DNA of 64,000 nucleotides from a virus: the IMG/VR virus record IMGVR_UViG_3300042566_000599, positions 1-64,000 of that record, one strand, 5' to 3'. Under the pieces are notes generated by a model. The model did no database searches. It had not been told where the DNA came from and worked only from the letters and a program-made list of their open reading frames with translations. The translations under genes and the position numbers were made by a program. Shown piece by piece: positions 24,025 to 52,845 of the stretch (position 1 is its first letter; every line of letters begins with the position of its first letter).

Positions 24025-24199
24025 TTTGCTCTAATCCTCCTCTAGATGGTCATTTTCGCACATTCTGGCCAATTCAGGCACAGCGTAGACCTTGCCACAC
24101 AACTGGCAGGTCCACTGAGCGAGCCTATCCTTCATCAGGAGCAGTCTACGGCTACTGCCTAACCTCCAACCCCTCAACCATGTCTCCAACCTGGGGGTT

Positions 24200-25100
24200 C
24201 CCTTGGGGAGTTTGACTTAATGGTGGGGGGTGTTATGTCAGTTGTATGTGTTGTTACTTCACCACCTGACTACTAATCAGGTGGTTGTTGTTCAACTCAT
24301 GCTTTGTTATCAGGTGTGAATAATTATTTGGTGACAACATTGGTGACAATAACTTCGGCTACTGTGCAGATTGCAACATGGTCTGTGCGAATACCACCAA
24401 GCCAACAGACCACCTCACCAGTTGTTATCACATACTTTGTTACTCGCTTCGCGTTGCTATGTGTTGTTATGTAGTTAGTTATTAGTTGTTACAACTAACG
24501 ATTCGTTATGTGTAGATAGTTACTATGACTAACTGGGTTATTCCCTAGTAATTAAGTGACTCACTCAGTCATTCCCTAGTAAGCCCAGTAACTTCAGCAC
24601 TAGACATCTTGGTAAGTTACTTCGTGACTGGTCTGGTGATGTAGCCAGTTAGTGATGAAGTAACTTTAGTTTCGCCATTCCTACTTACTTGTTTTATCCA
24701 CAGGTGTAACTCTTCATACGCACGACAGCAGAACACCTAGTTACTTATCTCTATTCCTAAAGTGTTTATTTGTATTAGGTGTATCTCTATCTATTCTTTA
24801 TGTATCTATTGCAATCTTTGTATTAGTCATTACTGAAAAGAAAAACCTCTTGGCGCGAATAGTTATGTGGGGGCGCACGCTCAAACACGAACTAACCAAC
24901 TTTCATAACGGGGATACAGGTGGGTTACTTGTAGGCACACAGGGCGCACAGGCACAACAGGCACACACAAAAACGCGAACTAACTTGGAATGGCAGCCAC
25001 GAAGTTAGTTGAAGATTCAACTACCTCATGAGGGGGCTGGGGCGCATACAGGGCTATCTAGGCTCAAAACCCCTATGAACACGCCTGTACAACTCAGTCG
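24200..25100. other. Non-coding divergence region, putative origin or genome-end region
   Basis: No long ORFs; about 8 TGTTA(T/C) motifs, TTATCCACA at 24694-24702, AT-rich tract 24740-24845; strand switch. Confidence 0.5.
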
Positions 25101-25108
25101 GTCATCTA

Positions 25109-25117
25109 TGGCATAAT
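25109..25117 (+). promoter_or_regulatory. Extended -10 promoter element
   Basis: TGgCATAAT immediately before the structured region. Confidence 0.55.
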
Positions 25118-25123
25118 TGGGTC

Positions 25124-25795
25124 TGCACACGCGACCAACGCGATTCGGAAAAGTAGCACCTGTCGAGTGATTCCGAATCTCTAGTAGTCAGAGTGAAAAA
25201 GGCAAAGCGCAATTACAAACTGCGGTGTATCTGTTTATAGAACTTCGGTTCGCGGTTGATAACCAAAACAGAGTGACGAAAGAGTTTAGGTGCGTAAATT
25301 AAATAGTGACTAAGAAGCACGCGATAACTAATTGTGTTTCAGTTAATTAACATAACGATTACCAATAGTGAATCTACCTATTGCTAACGGATTAACTGGA
25401 AACAATTACATTACGAAAGTTAGGAATAAAAACTTTCTTGCGAAGACTTGTTATACGCCATGACTAACTTGTTTATTCAACGCACCGAATAAATAAATTA
25501 CGAGCGATTAAATGTAACAACGAGCGATTAAGTAATAAACGATAACGACGAACGATTAGGAAACTAATTGTGTATAGCGTGTGGCTTAGAAGAGTTATGG
25601 AAAGTTGTATAACTCAGATTGTCAGTTGTTCATGGATTGCCAACTTTGTTGGTGCAGACAGTAACCAATCTGTTCGACAGAACAATGAAGACAACTGAAC
25701 AATCTAGTTATACATACTTAGTAATTCCGCTATGTGCTTTCTGCGATTGTTAGTGACAACCACTCAGCGAAGTGACTCACTAACAATCGTGGTGA
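25124..25795 (+). ncRNA. Putative large structured non-coding RNA of unknown class
   Basis: No sense ORF; at least 8 helices, UUCG and GAAA tetraloops, complementary loops GGUGCG/CGCACC; boundaries approximate. Confidence 0.65.
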
Positions 25796-25818
25796 ATACA
25801 TAGGAAGGTAATAAACAA

Positions 25819-25989
25819 ATGCAAATCACATACACAGTCGGTGACTTATTCACCTCTACTAAATCACGAGTGACTGGAACTATCCAAGAGATTGTTCCCA
25901 TTAGCGATTCCCTAGTAAAAGTCAGATTAGATGTTGAAGGCGTTACTCGCTGGACTACATGGACACCTGATGTTGAACCTACTGAATAA
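25819..25989 (+). CDS. 56-aa small beta protein (not in ORF track)
   Basis: MQITYTVGDLFTSTKSRVTGTIQEIVP...VRLDVEGVTRWTTW; SD AGGAAGG. Confidence 0.65.
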   Translation: MQITYTVGDLFTSTKSRVTGTIQEIVPISDSLVKVRLDVEGVTRWTTWTPDVEPTE

Positions 25990-26340: not shown

Positions 26341-27723
26341 ATGACAACAAATTACGGCGTACTACTCGTTTCACAACCTGCTGATGTAAATGTAACTCGA
26401 CAGGTATTTATCGCAAACATAAACGGACAGACTGTTGTTCGTTCTCGATTCACAAATGGTAAGCAAGGAAAGCAGAACGCTTGGATAACTGAACCATTCA
26501 GTTATGAAAGTGGTGAGCCACTTATCGGTGACCCAGTTGCAATTCCTGTATCACAGAATGATGTTGAAGACTTCAGAGAAAACGGATTCCCACGAGTTCT
26601 GATTCAGAAACTAATTCGTAAGCACTCACTTGGTAATCAAGACATCACAGAAGAGGCGATAGCAGTTGCCGATTCAGTCTTCAGCGCAGTAGATAACGAC
26701 CCTGCTTCGCTTGCTCAGTATTACACCGACAATCGCGGTCAGCGTTCAGTAAAGGATTCAATCGTGGCAAACAATTCAGTTATTCGTATCAAGCCAGTCG
26801 CTTCTAACGAGTTAGTTAGTGAGCGTTCGTTGTATCTACCTAGTGTCGGTGAGTTCTCGCACTACATCTCACGAAAGTTTGCTGGTGATGTTGATGAACT
26901 CGCTATGTACCAATTCGCATTGAAGAACAAGATGAATGTTCTTCTTTATGGAGACGCTGGAACTGGAAAGACAACATCTTCAATGTGGGTATCTTCATTG
27001 TTAGGTCTTCCTTACTTTGCGATTCCTTCCAACTCTGCACTTGATTACACACAAATTGTTGGTGGCTATGTACCAAACGCCAATGGTTCTTTGTCATGGA
27101 GTGACGGCGCAGTAACTCGCTTAGTTCGTAATGGTGGAGTTCTTCTTATCGGTGAAGTAAATACACTTGCTAAGAATGTTCAACAATTCCTAATGCCACT
27201 ACTTGATTACCGCCGTTCAATTACTGTCATGGAGAATGGCAACGAAGTTATCAAGGCGCACGACAACTTGTTAATTATCGCTGACATGAATCCAAATTAT
27301 CGTGGCACTCAACTACTTAATGAAGCATGGAAAGACCGCTTCGAGATTAAGTTGAACTTCGATTATGACCGCAAGATTGAAGAGAAGATTCTCAAATCAG
27401 AATCACTCTTGGAACTTGCTTACGGCATGAGGTCGCGTTCTCGTGGTGCGAGTAACTACTCAAACACAGATAGCACCGCAATCTTCGATACTCCTGTTTC
27501 AACTCGTATCCTCAAAACATTTGAGAAGTTAGCAACAGAGTTGTCATTCGACTTTGCTTGTGAGGTCTTCATAAATAACTTTGATGAAAACGAACGACCA
27601 GCAGTAAAGATGTTGTTGGAATCAAATGCTTACAATCTCAAAGAAGATTTAGGTATTACTGATTCATCTTCTGTCACACGCGACAGAATCATTGAAGAAC
27701 ACTTAACTCGTCTTGATTCCTAG
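26341..27723 (+). CDS. MoxR-class AAA+ ATPase (CbbQ/NirQ/CobS-like)
   Basis: GDAGTGKT, WSDG.VT..VRNGGVLLIGEVN, MNPNYRGT..LNEAWKDRF. Confidence 0.88.
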   Translation: MTTNYGVLLVSQPADVNVTRQVFIANINGQTVVRSRFTNGKQGKQNAWITEPFSYESGEPLIGDPVAIPVSQNDVEDFRENGFPRVLIQKLIRKHSLGNQDITEEAIAVADSVFSAVDNDPASLAQYYTDNRGQRSVKDSIVANNSVIRIKPVASNELVSERSLYLPSVGEFSHYISRKFAGDVDELAMYQFALKNKMNVLLYGDAGTGKTTSSMWVSSLLGLPYFAIPSNSALDYTQIVGGYVPNANGSLSWSDGAVTRLVRNGGVLLIGEVNTLAKNVQQFLMPLLDYRRSITVMENGNEVIKAHDNLLIIADMNPNYRGTQLLNEAWKDRFEIKLNFDYDRKIEEKILKSESLLELAYGMRSRSRGASNYSNTDSTAIFDTPVSTRILKTFEKLATELSFDFACEVFINNFDENERPAVKMLLESNAYNLKEDLGITDSSSVTRDRIIEEHLTRLDS

Positions 27724-27734
27724 AAGGGAATGTC

Positions 27735-29657
27735 ATGTCACAACCAAAACTAACTGAGTTCGTTAATAGAGCGACTCAGATTCAACAGGAAGAAGAGCAG
27801 AACCGCGCTCGTGTCGAGCGACTAACTCGTTACTTCTCTCGTGTTAATTCAGCACTTACATTTCGTGAAATAAAAGTAACTGTTGAATCATCAGAACTAA
27901 ATGCACCTGCTTGGTCAGGTGCTAGTGACATCACACTTAATTCACGACTTATCAACGACTTTAACAAAGGCGTTAATGTTGCGAATCTTCGTGGTCTTAA
28001 CTTTCACGAGTTATCACACATTCTCTATACACCGCGTACAGGTTCAGAGATTGTCACATGGGTCAATGAACAGGGTTATCGCCAAGCGTTTAATGCACTA
28101 GAAGACCAGCGCATTGAAACTCTATTTACTTCACGATTCCCTTCAACTGTTGATTGGTTCGTAGTAACTGTTCTGACTTACTTTGTTAATGATGAACAAC
28201 AATTCGCAAACTCTTATCCGTTGCTTCGTGGTCGTAAGTATCTGCCACTAGAAGTGCGTACTAAGTCGCGTGAGTTGTTTATACACAAAGATAAGTTAGA
28301 TGAACTGTGTTCAATCATTGACGAATACAGAACACTTATTTACCCACTTGATACAGAGCGTGGCAAAGTTCTTGTTGAACAATTCCACAAACTCATTGAC
28401 TCACTACCTCAGCATGACAACGGAAGCGAAAGTGGAAGTGGCGAAAGTGGTGAAGGCAGTAATGAAGTTGTTGATTACAACGACATGGCTGAGTGGGAGA
28501 AAGAGATACTAAAGAACGCCACACCTGCTGACGGCACTATAAAGAACACTAAGACAGTTCTTAATTGCCCATTTGGTCACGAAGAGCGACCAACTGAAGG
28601 TATCGAACCAACAGTTGCTTCACGACCACAACCATTGAAACAACAGAAGCGCGATAGTGAAAGAGCAAAGCAATTAGATAGTGTGATTGAAGATGAAGCC
28701 GATTCATTCTTTGATTCACAATTTGATTCTGATTCACAATCTAACTCTGAGTCATTCGGTCAATCTGCTGGTACTGAAACTTCTCTTTCAGAACTTCTCA
28801 ATACCGCTATTACTGATGTTATGGATAAGCACGAAGTTGCTAACGAAATTAACAACATCATTCGTGTAATGAAGGGTCTTCCTTCTTTATCTTCTAACAA
28901 CCTAGAAGAACCTGAACCTGCTCGTTACCACAATCTAATTCCCGACAGTAGGACACTCTCTGCTTCAGTTTCATTCGCTCGTGAGTTAGAGCGATTGAAA
29001 GCAAAGTTTGACCCTGCTTGGGATAAGTACGAATCTCGTGGCAAATTAAATGCTTCTCGATTCATGCGTGGTGATGATTTAGATACAGTCTTTGATTCAT
29101 GGAATGAAGGTCGTGAAGATGTTACTGAGATTGAAGCAGTAATCATTCTTGATAATTCAGGTTCTATGAATGGAGAAAAAGCAACTCAGTCTTATCGTGC
29201 TATGTATGCAGTTAAATACGCACTCGACAAGATTGGTGCTAATTGTTCTGTTCTTACTTTCAACACACAAACTCGAACTCTTTATCACGCAACTGAAAAG
29301 GCAAACAATTCAGTTCGTGATAGTGGAACAACAGGTGGCACAGAAGCCGAGTATGCAGTTCGTTATGCAACTAAGTTACTTGCTGAATCAACCAAGCCTG
29401 TAAAACTATTCTTTGCAATTACTGACGGAGAATGGTCTGACACAAAGGTTTGTGATGAAGAGATTAAGAAACTCTCTCGTGCTGGCGTGCTAACCGCGTT
29501 TGCATACATTCCTGAATCACATGAAGAAGTTGTGCTGACTCACGAGAAGGCGCACTACTCAGATGTTGCTTCAGTAATTCGTAATCCGTTTGACCTTGTT
29601 GGTATGGCTCGAATAATCGTGCAAAACGCGATTAGTCGCAGACTTACTAACGCTTAG
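27735..29657 (+). CDS. vWA-domain protein with N-terminal HExxH (CobT-like)
   Basis: HELSH...NALEDQRIE; MIDAS DNSGSM, GGT, ITDG. Confidence 0.85.
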   Translation: MSQPKLTEFVNRATQIQQEEEQNRARVERLTRYFSRVNSALTFREIKVTVESSELNAPAWSGASDITLNSRLINDFNKGVNVANLRGLNFHELSHILYTPRTGSEIVTWVNEQGYRQAFNALEDQRIETLFTSRFPSTVDWFVVTVLTYFVNDEQQFANSYPLLRGRKYLPLEVRTKSRELFIHKDKLDELCSIIDEYRTLIYPLDTERGKVLVEQFHKLIDSLPQHDNGSESGSGESGEGSNEVVDYNDMAEWEKEILKNATPADGTIKNTKTVLNCPFGHEERPTEGIEPTVASRPQPLKQQKRDSERAKQLDSVIEDEADSFFDSQFDSDSQSNSESFGQSAGTETSLSELLNTAITDVMDKHEVANEINNIIRVMKGLPSLSSNNLEEPEPARYHNLIPDSRTLSASVSFARELERLKAKFDPAWDKYESRGKLNASRFMRGDDLDTVFDSWNEGREDVTEIEAVIILDNSGSMNGEKATQSYRAMYAVKYALDKIGANCSVLTFNTQTRTLYHATEKANNSVRDSGTTGGTEAEYAVRYATKLLAESTKPVKLFFAITDGEWSDTKVCDEEIKKLSRAGVLTAFAYIPESHEEVVLTHEKAHYSDVASVIRNPFDLVGMARIIVQNAISRRLTNA

Positions 29658-33727: not shown

Positions 33728-34059
33728 AAAAAGTAAAAGTAAAAACACTTCCTTCATCACAACCAAAGAGAGCGACTAACAATCCTGTCTTCAATCTCAA
33801 AGTGCCAACACCACGCGACATTGACCAAACTCCATGTCAAAAGAATGACCCTGAGATTTGGTTTCCTAGTGGAGAGAACCTTCCTGAAGACACCGAGAAG
33901 ATAAAAACTGCTAAATCACTATGCGCTCAATGCCACGAAACAACTAAGTGCCTTTCATTCGCATTATCGAATCGGATTCGTTATGGGATTTGGGGTGGCA
34001 CTACTGAATCAGAACGACAGACACTTATTCGTAGAGCAGAACGGAGTAAAACTAAATGA
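33724..34059 (+). CDS. whiB: WhiB-family transcription factor
   Basis: C..DPEIWFP...C.QC....C, GIWGG. Confidence 0.9.
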   Translation: MKKVKVKTLPSSQPKRATNNPVFNLKVPTPRDIDQTPCQKNDPEIWFPSGENLPEDTEKIKTAKSLCAQCHETTKCLSFALSNRIRYGIWGGTTESERQTLIRRAERSKTK

Positions 34060-35403: not shown

Positions 35404-35440
35404 AGACCCTCATTCCCGATACGGAATGGGGGTCTTTTTT
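35404..35440 (+). terminator. Rho-independent terminator
   Basis: AGACCCTCATTCC/GGAATGGGGGTCT stem followed by a T-run. Confidence 0.8.
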
Positions 35441-37476: not shown

Positions 37477-37512
37477 AGTGGAGTAGCCCTCTTGATTGGG
37501 GGTTACTCCACT
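37477..37512. terminator. Hairpin at the convergent junction
   Basis: AGTGGAGTAGCCCTC/GGGGGTTACTCCACT. Confidence 0.6.
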
Positions 37513-52528: not shown

Positions 52529-52845
52529 TACACATCCTTACTAAATATAAACTCTTCTAAGGTCATTTTCTTTTTGTATTTTTTTTGCCACTTTCGTACT
52601 AAAGCGTTCCTTTCTCGATGAGAGAGTCCTCCCCAAATTCCATGAGGCTCGTCTCTAGAGACTGCGTCCCATAAACATGCGTTTTTAACTGGACAGTGAG
52701 TTTTTCCGTTCTCACCAAAACAAAAAGCCTTTGCTTTTTCAGCAATGACTTTGTACTGCTCCTTATCTCGTGGTGGATAAAAGAGGTCAGTATCTTCTCC
52801 TGAGCATTTAGCCTGATATCTCCAGGCGTACTCTGGTTCTTCCAT
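52528..52845 (-). CDS. whiB: WhiB-family transcription factor
   Basis: W...AKC...D.DLFYP, CPV...CL, GIWGGLS..ER. Confidence 0.9.
   Translation of the reverse strand: MEEPEYAWRYQAKCSGEDTDLFYPPRDKEQYKVIAEKAKAFCFGENGKTHCPVKNACLWDAVSRDEPHGIWGGLSHRERNALVRKWQKKYKKKMTLEEFIFSKDV

Follow-up and report, generated by a model that had tools for sequence, protein, structure and literature searches.

The window, that is, the whole stretch of 64,000 nucleotides analysed here, comprises positions 1 to 64,000 of an IMG/VR phage record that measures 96,345 bp and bears direct terminal repeats. It encodes a portal protein, a terminase, a ribonucleotide reductase, a DNA polymerase A, helicases and a tyrosine recombinase. 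It also carries two genes of the WhiB family (33826-34026 on the plus strand and 52600-52824 on the minus strand), and this family is the usual marker of actinobacterial phages (PMC6802176). With WhiB genes present, the hosts of these phages are probably actinobacteria. All 24 public sequencing runs listed as containing the stretch are lake or freshwater DNA metagenomes, and there is no RNA run among them. Our study concerns an ORF-poor gap of 1.63 kb (24190-25818), which lies between leftward small genes on one side and a rightward gene block on the other. This gap houses an RNA tract that occurs once in the phage genome.

The rightward block is on the plus strand. It begins with a Shine-Dalgarno sequence, GGAAGG (25803-25808), and a 56-aa gene (25819-25989; together 25803-25989), the first gene of the operon. 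A 95-aa gene follows, then a MoxR/CobS-like ATPase of the AAA_5 type (26341-27723) and a vWA protein (27735-29657), and after these come WhiB, a pyrimidine-dimer glycosylase, a recombinase and a lysozyme-like protein. The only strong intrinsic terminators on the plus strand are found at 35404-35435 and 37477-37512 (stems of 13 and 15 bp with T runs), and the one at 35404-35435 separates the MoxR-WhiB part from the recombinase and lysozyme-like genes. The operon is about 10 kb long and reaches to about 35.4 kb. The vWA protein (640 aa) is paired with the CobS/MoxR-like ATPase and has an HExxH motif at residues 91-95, which is invariant in 19 homologues; its N-terminal region is otherwise unassigned. 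This motif suggests a metallopeptidase-like domain fused to the vWA domain. We also considered an analogy to Ro60 and its Y RNA and rejected it: Pfam finds no TROVE domain in the vWA protein, and its N-terminal part has the HExxH motif instead.

Ahead of the RNA lies a predicted extended -10 promoter, TGG-CATAAT (TGGCATAAT, 25109-25117, plus strand). The sequence-only reading had placed this promoter in front of the tract, and its -10 positions are indeed kept in relatives. At the same site relatives have TGnCATAAT, TTCAAT, TTTAAT, CATACT, TACTAT or AATAGT, so that the A at position 2 and the T at position 6 of the hexamer are invariant. Because the promoter sits 7-10 nt before the conserved sequence GCACACGC in the relatives, we infer that the RNA starts near 25124, with transcription initiating at about 25123-25126.

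The DNA upstream of the promoter has conserved features of its own. A block at 24800-24880 (within 24796-24984) is invariant in close relatives and ends in GGGGGCGCACGC, which resembles the 5′ end of the RNA, and a pair of direct repeats lies at 24872-24896 and 24960-24984. The features within 24796-24984 may be extra upstream promoters or duplicated leader starts. A second conserved non-coding block (24216-24430) is found together with the RNA in all relatives, in the same orientation and 0.6-1.8 kb ahead of it. It contains TTAATGGTGGGGGG, the inverted repeat CACCTGA...TCAGGTG, a palindrome (GTTGTTCAAC/GTGTTAACAC), two direct repeats of TTGGTGACA, and CTTCGGCTACTG, and it is followed by an AT-rich repeat tract. 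Changes in the inverted repeat are uncompensated in relatives L044 and L021. This block, which lies outside the RNA, looks like a set of DNA-level signals for protein binding, such as an origin or operators.

Relatives of the RNA were collected by three routes: via the MoxR and 56-aa proteins; by scanning IMG/VR with an 18-base pattern of invariant core positions (24 contigs); and by applying the 18-base pattern to JGI and ENA metagenomes, where 22 of the 41 stretches found are true members. A variant with one base fewer between P5 and the junction escaped the pattern scans. After de-duplication there are 35 distinct relatives, the window not counted, and every one of them comes from an uncultured freshwater phage. 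In 185,579 bacterial and archaeal species genomes the pattern matched seven times, and the profile and the covariance model rejected all seven. Hence, these genomes hold no host or prophage copy, and the RNA itself does not lead to a host assignment. A blastn search of the GenBank phage collection gave zero matches. Since neither the species genomes nor the GenBank phages hold a true match, the family is, as far as it is known, restricted to uncultured freshwater phages. Our literature searches did not find it described. It is an uncatalogued RNA family, present in about 36 uncultured freshwater phages and heading the same operon in them. The RNA is about 690 nt long in the window and, from its start to the AUG, about 370 nt in the most compact relatives, such as L044 and L071.

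That the tract is highly structured had been claimed from the sequence-only reading, and folding against shuffled sequences bears this out (z = -6.3 on the plus strand and -3.1 on the minus strand). The comparison of relatives is more telling. In a set of 20 sequences and 42 pairs, 95.0% of the cells are paired, compared with 79.3% after shuffling (a value as high is reached in 0 of 500 shuffles) and 25-44% when the arms are slid. Changes on both sides occur in 25 of the 42 pairs, where 18.1 would be expected (0 of 500). The check for covariation that had been proposed for this tract thus finds compensatory changes in the core helices. G-U pairs fill 128 cells and A-C pairs only 11, and reading the opposite strand drops pairing to 81%. 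This imbalance shows that the RNA is read from the plus strand, as had been supposed from the letters alone, and that the tract is not a DNA cruciform. There is also no conserved reading frame between 25124 and 25818, which agrees with the earlier description of the tract as ORF-free: stop-free stretches are short and differ between relatives, insertions and deletions do not come in threes, and the sole long ORF (in L011) is missing in the close relatives of L011.

The tract 25109-25818 is therefore a real, elaborately folded plus-strand RNA. One could argue that there is no RNA element at all: the conservation would then reflect signals in the DNA itself (an origin or operators) or small genes missed by annotation, or the structure would be due to chance. 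The neighbouring block at 24216-24430 does resemble DNA-level signals, with its palindromes, its direct repeats and its lack of compensated stems. However, the excess of G-U over A-C shows selection on one RNA strand, every core helix has compensatory changes, and both the missing frame and the pattern of insertions and deletions speak against genes. Covariation and strand asymmetry already contradict this explanation, and we give it almost no credence.

The 5′ domain (25125-25317) is the more variable part of the RNA. RNAalifold found almost nothing in a MAFFT alignment of this domain, as the stems are out of register. The helices were therefore tested by anchoring, which was done for hairpin H1 and for the closing stem of the three-way junction. 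The domain begins (25125-25179) with the 5′ end GCACACGC, a small hairpin CGCG/CGCG (25130-25142) and H1, whose arms covary. H1 pairs 25142-25150 with 25171-25179 and encloses a conserved AG-A-C motif and an inner hairpin. Its arms read UCGGAA/UUCCGA, CUCGAAU/AUUCGAG, UGAAUU/AAUUCA, UGCGAU/AUCGCG, CCGAUUU/AAAUCGG or CUGAUCU/AGAUCAG in different relatives. In the anchor-based test, 17 of 19 sequences have 5-11 contiguous pairs at this place, with at least nine different arm sequences, and in the shuffled control a helix of at least 7 bp appears in 3% of trials. The helix GATTCGGAA/TTCCGAATC, proposed for 25142-25179, is thus recovered well beyond the window.

The next segment (25193-25227) consists of invariant or near-invariant columns (alignments A4 and A5): a single-stranded GUGAAAAAGGC (25193-25203), the hairpin H2 (25208-25211/25221-25224) and the sequence GCGGUG (25222-25227). 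It is present in all groups, the compact GC-rich members included. It leads into a three-way junction (25230-25278) with a closing stem at 25230-25236/25266-25272, two inner hairpins (GAAC-UUCG-GUUC and GGUU-GAU-AACC) and a conserved GUGACG (25273-25278) directly after it. The register of the closing stem is fixed, 2 nt from GGUG at one end and directly before GUGAC at the other, and the stem nevertheless comes in four versions: UCUGUUU/AAACAGA, GUUCGUUG/UGGCGAAU, CUGAU/AUCAG and CUGAUUCGAA/UUCGAAUCAG. The junction TCTGTTT/AAACAGA, which had been drawn from the window, is therefore a feature of the family. In a subgroup comprising L011, L013, L014, L017 and their relatives, an AU-rich insertion of about 45 nt lies within this junction. 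We had also considered the CCCUAGGG palindromes as dimerisation sites and dropped the idea, because relatives have UUCG, UUAG or CAAG tetraloop hairpins there.

The last part of the domain (25284-25317) holds a hairpin at 25284-25299 with the loop GGUGCG, which is found in most relatives with varying loop sequences, and the conserved AAUUAAAUAGUGACUAAGAAG (25297-25317). The domain finishes with AAUUA-AUAG-G-CUA, of which AUAG-G-CUA is near-invariant. Searched with a profile of the 5′ domain, almost every locus that extends far enough shows this domain immediately ahead of the core and in the same orientation. In the five compact GC-rich members the 5′ domain is joined to the core within about 10 nt.

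Between the two domains of the window lies an expansion (25318-25550) with the stem 25330-25347/25391-25407, the hairpin GAAAGUU/AACUUUC, a hairpin at 25469-25496 with the loop CGCACC and two ACGAGCGAUUAA repeats. It is shared only by the window and L004, and in part by L005. It is deleted in L002, L025 and L006 and absent from the compact members. Of 75 pairs in the predicted fold, five are compensatory and eight broken between the window and L004; the 17-bp stem has two compensatory pairs and a broken outer part in this comparison. Similar segments flank the expansion, 25297-25317 (AAUUAAAUAGUGACUAAGAAG) and 25566-25592 (AAUUGUGUAUAGCGUGUGGCUUAGAAG), and in compact relatives this segment is single. 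The expansion of about 250 nt may have arisen by an insertion with duplication.

Several elements singled out by the sequence-only reading belong to this expansion or to the window itself, and here that reading needs revision. The 17-bp stem 25330-25347/25391-25407 and the hairpin GAAAGTT/AACTTTC are found in the window, in L004 and in part also in L005 but not elsewhere in the family, and the ACGAGCGATTAA repeat, with the same distribution, is likewise absent from L002, L025, L006 and the compact members. The proposed loop-loop pairing GGUGCG/CGCACC is confined to the window: L002, L025 and L006 lack the partner hairpin, and in L004 the GGUGCG loop is kept but faces a CAAUGAG loop. The proposed pairing of the 5′ CACACGC with GCGUGUG is perfect in the window only. 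Overall, the fold, the strand, the promoter and the core helices of the earlier reading stand, whereas the kissing loop and the 5′-3′ pairing fall away as features of the family.

The 3′ domain is where conservation is strongest. It starts (25552-25586) with P1 (25552-25558/25565-25571, loop GGAAAC) and a small hairpin AGC/GCU (25576-25586). The pairs of P1 are maintained by two-sided changes in alignment A2; P1 is missing from the compact members. The universally conserved core (25593-25726, covariance model R1) is closed by P2 (25593-25598 with 25721-25726, supported in alignment A2), which is followed by P2a/P3 (25605-25630 with 25690-25714). P4 (25639-25653) lies between the junction sequence CAUGGAUU and UGCAG, and P5 (25657-25675, loop UAACCAAU) is followed by the junction sequence GACAGAACAAUGAA. 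All these helices are on the plus strand. The invariant bases of the core three-way junction are A-GGA--G, UGC-G, GUA--CA-UC and A--G-AC--UGA. Covariance model R1 gives 75-122 bits for each of the 36 members and no match in the controls. Over the 36 members, 94.9% of the cells in the 17 core pairs are paired, compared with 73.9% after shuffling and 26-45% when slid, and 14 of the 17 pairs have changed on both sides. A pseudoknot between the junction and the P5 loop (GAUUG/CAAUC) was examined by eye and rejected, as the pairing is lost in relatives.

The core is followed by P6, a long covarying hairpin (25730-25803) with its base at UAUGUG/UACAUA (25731-25736/25797-25802). It contains the 13-bp stem 25744-25756/25777-25789 and is capped by a 4-bp stem with the conserved hexaloop CAGCGA (25765-25770). 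Both partners have changed in 12 of 15 stem pairs. The apical stem covaries as well, and its loop stays fixed as C(A/U)GCGA. The predicted energy is -32.2 kcal/mol, and the whole forms a stable duplex of about 30 bp. Compensatory changes are thus present in each of the 3′ helices predicted beforehand, namely ATTAG-GAAA-CTAAT, the interrupted stem 25607-25633/25685-25713 with its multiloop, and the 13-bp stem. In the L011/L013/L014/L017 subgroup a further hairpin, GAAUACAU/AUGUAUUC, comes after P6 and competes with the P6 base.

How is the RNA connected to the genes that follow? P6 ends at the Shine-Dalgarno site of the 56-aa gene. The position and orientation of the RNA are identical in every locus, and it is never found outside the operon head. 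Even the loci found by the RNA pattern only all carry g95-MoxR-vWA 0.7-2.1 kb downstream on the same strand, provided there is enough downstream sequence. The claim that the RNA heads the MoxR-vWA block directly after a conserved promoter consequently holds wherever a locus leaves room for these genes. In about 30 relatives the end of the RNA is separated from the ribosome-binding site and start codon by 10-100 nt, and no terminator-like site lies in between; in the window there is none within 25100-25830. The RNA thus fills the space between the conserved promoter and the first gene's ribosome-binding site and forms an untranslated operon head. The first gene itself varies among seven kinds, as does the distance from P6 to the start codon. 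Hence, what the RNA goes with is the operon head, not any one gene or the masking of one ribosome-binding site. The RNA is also more conserved than the gene that follows it.

Two families of small proteins recur behind the RNA, and in 28 of 31 loci the first or the second gene encodes one or the other. Type A, to which the 56-aa gene belongs, is conserved in at least ten relatives, and homologues also occur at loci without the RNA (L026, L027 and L029-L031). Type B (about 57 aa; …IVARG-I…IDL-L-DGTRFYSTKSD-Y…) is found at L014:4867-5037 and 11 other loci (alignment A8), has no Pfam or PHROG match, and replaces the 56-aa gene right after the RNA in many relatives. No homology between the two types is detectable (hhalign probability 2%). 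The predicted model of type A is a small beta-barrel of the KOW/Tudor/SH3 type (pLDDT 84), with the KOW domain of NusG as its best structural match (Z 5.7, rmsd 1.6 Å over 44 residues). A Foldseek search gave KOW/Tudor/SH3 matches below threshold and none with an E-value of 0.001 or better. The likeness to KOW domains is a hint, below the level at which it would mean more than a common fold.

Does the RNA belong to a class that is already known? Rfam 15 gives nothing at gathering scores across the 64 kb. With permissive filters and E-values up to 10, searches with 731 and 2201 bases returned only noise (mir-606, Hatchet, McaS, pRNA, snoRNAs). The RNA therefore remains without a match to a known family, as had been suspected. 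ARAGORN detects no tRNA or tmRNA in the window and Rfam no RNase P or intron, which agrees with the earlier exclusion of tmRNA, RNase P and introns. Bacterial RNase P RNA in particular has no Rfam match at E-values up to 10. The look-alike motifs GGAAAGU, CGACAGAAC and GUGAAA-GG stand in what we take to be the wrong order relative to the E. coli sequence. Hatchet (RF02678) was rejected too. Its match reaches 18.5 bits (E = 0.68-2), covers model positions 35-125 only and is absent in L044. Furthermore, the 3′ partners of the Hatchet helix GGCG/CGUGC pair within P4, where they covary (CG 19, UG 8, UA 6) while GGCUUAG stays fixed. An expression platform as in riboswitches or T-boxes was rejected on the terminator-free stretch 25100-25830, on the spacing of 10-100 nt between P6 and the start codon, and on the restriction of the competing hairpin to one subgroup.

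Immediately preceded by a promoter, not followed by a terminator and placed at the head of the same operon whatever the first gene, the RNA is best read as a cis-acting leader that would bind a macromolecule during transcription and set the elongation or stability of the operon transcript. We give this reading an even chance of being correct. Under it, the 5′ domain and the three-way-junction core would fold into one defined shape as they are transcribed. The partner bound by this shape could be a host factor, RNA polymerase itself or the small beta-barrel protein whose gene comes next, and the binding would set the output of the operon of about 10 kb. The likely level of control would be transcript elongation, as for lambda nut and HK022 put, or transcript stability; P6, lying beside the ribosome-binding site, would be a plausible 5′ stabiliser or RNase III processing site. 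The genome has one copy, and its place and orientation are constant, which speaks for a leader; the small protein in the first two genes of most loci recalls the lambda order pL, nutL, N. The RNA does not look like a single-gene operator or a classical attenuator. Some observations fit a leader less well. At 370-690 nt the RNA far exceeds known antitermination or protein-binding leaders, and its many unpaired yet invariant bases are what one sees in ribozymes and large ornate RNAs. There is no strong internal terminator before 35.4 kb that would need to be overridden, and we found no switch between alternative structures that is conserved across the whole family.

These reservations lead to the most serious competitor, in which the tract is a large non-coding RNA in its own right that is cut or partly terminated, for example at P6, and acts in trans as a scaffold, as a decoy for a host protein or a defence system, or as a self-assembling particle like GOLLD and ROOL. 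Size, ornateness, conserved junction bases, a 3′ core present throughout the family, a 5′ domain of weaker conservation and a variable linker are what one would expect of such an RNA, and the layout is that of GOLLD (PMC12286853). Conservation beyond that of the following gene also fits, as does the stable P6 duplex of about 30 bp with its conserved apical loop. Yet in no relative is there a terminator or a gap ahead of the next gene, tRNA genes are not nearby as they are for GOLLD and ROOL, the only candidate pairing between loops is not conserved, and the RNA always stays at the operon head. We consider an independent RNA unlikely, if well worth keeping in mind. The more specific version, an RNP subunit together with the KOW-like protein and perhaps MoxR-vWA, or a scaffold or decoy released at P6, is slightly more doubtful still. 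The sequence-only reading had inferred a possibly new class of large non-coding RNA: large, conserved, structured and without a match in Rfam 15 it is, but the anatomy of the locus favours a 5′ leader over an independent RNA gene. A riboswitch-type sensor, in which a small molecule or a tRNA would be the ligand of the junction core and turn the operon on or off, is improbable. A three-way junction with invariant unpaired bases would suit a sensor, and the GAAUACAU/AUGUAUUC hairpin does compete with the base of P6 in one subgroup. But this hairpin is missing in the group of the window, no terminator or stem sequestering the ribosome-binding site is conserved, the downstream genes are neither metabolic nor concerned with transport, the size is far above that of known aptamers, and no Rfam riboswitch or T-box matches at E-values up to 10. 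Many small ribozymes are carried by phages, and the weak Hatchet match, which runs through GGCUUA...GUGCAGAC-GUAA, raises the question whether the message has its 5′ end trimmed by a self-cleaving ribozyme, be it hatchet-like or new. However, 18.5 bits is far under the gathering threshold of 51 bits, model positions 1-34, which include the cleavage site, are unmatched, and the bases paired in Hatchet sit in P4, which covaries itself. Since the compact members also have neither GGCUUAG nor a Hatchet match, we think a ribozyme very improbable.

Returning to the cis-acting leader, it is useful to compare the RNA with the two kinds of known system that it resembles. Like GOLLD and ROOL it is phage-borne, several hundred nucleotides long and built of several domains, with strong 3′ conservation, weaker 5′ conservation and a variable linker, and like them it comes from lake metagenomes (PMC12286853). 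GOLLD itself is described as well conserved towards the 3′ end and less so in the 5′ part, with a linker that varies (PMC12286853). Unlike GOLLD and ROOL, which often lie beside tRNA genes, our RNA has no tRNA neighbours. It matches neither of their Rfam models and is followed immediately by a ribosome-binding site, not by its own terminator. We did not detect conserved loop-loop contacts in it, such as the intermolecular kissing loops that hold together the homo-oligomeric cages of GOLLD and ROOL. The second comparison is with lambda nutL and N and with HK022 put, where leader RNAs make RNA polymerase resistant to terminators. The RNA (25125-25803) likewise comes directly after an early-type promoter (25109-25117) and precedes a long operon (to about 35.4 kb), most relatives encode a small protein within one or two genes, and a conserved hairpin carries a fixed loop (CAGCGA at the tip of P6). 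In contrast to nut and put, it is 5-10 times larger, has no boxA-like sequence after the promoter, and is followed by a small protein that is a predicted beta-barrel and not an arginine-rich peptide. Nor are there strong internal terminators before 35.4 kb.

To our knowledge, there are very few conserved bacterial or phage RNA classes longer than about 350 nt, and each large class that has been studied (RNase P, group I and II introns, OLE, GOLLD, ROOL) has proved to be catalytic or architecturally remarkable. The family described here has a conserved 5′ domain, compact forms of about 370 nt and a firm linkage to g95-MoxR-vWA and to two families of small proteins. Its well-defined core and its minimal form of about 370 nt are suited to structural work. 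Its genomic partners are strict: small proteins predicted to be beta-barrels, a MoxR ATPase and the vWA protein that bears the HExxH motif. Its carriers are phages whose hosts are abundant freshwater bacteria and difficult to grow in the laboratory. If the RNA is a leader only, it would be among the largest cis-acting phage leaders known to us, and it would help to understand how an operon that has WhiB and a recombinase among its genes is controlled in these phages.
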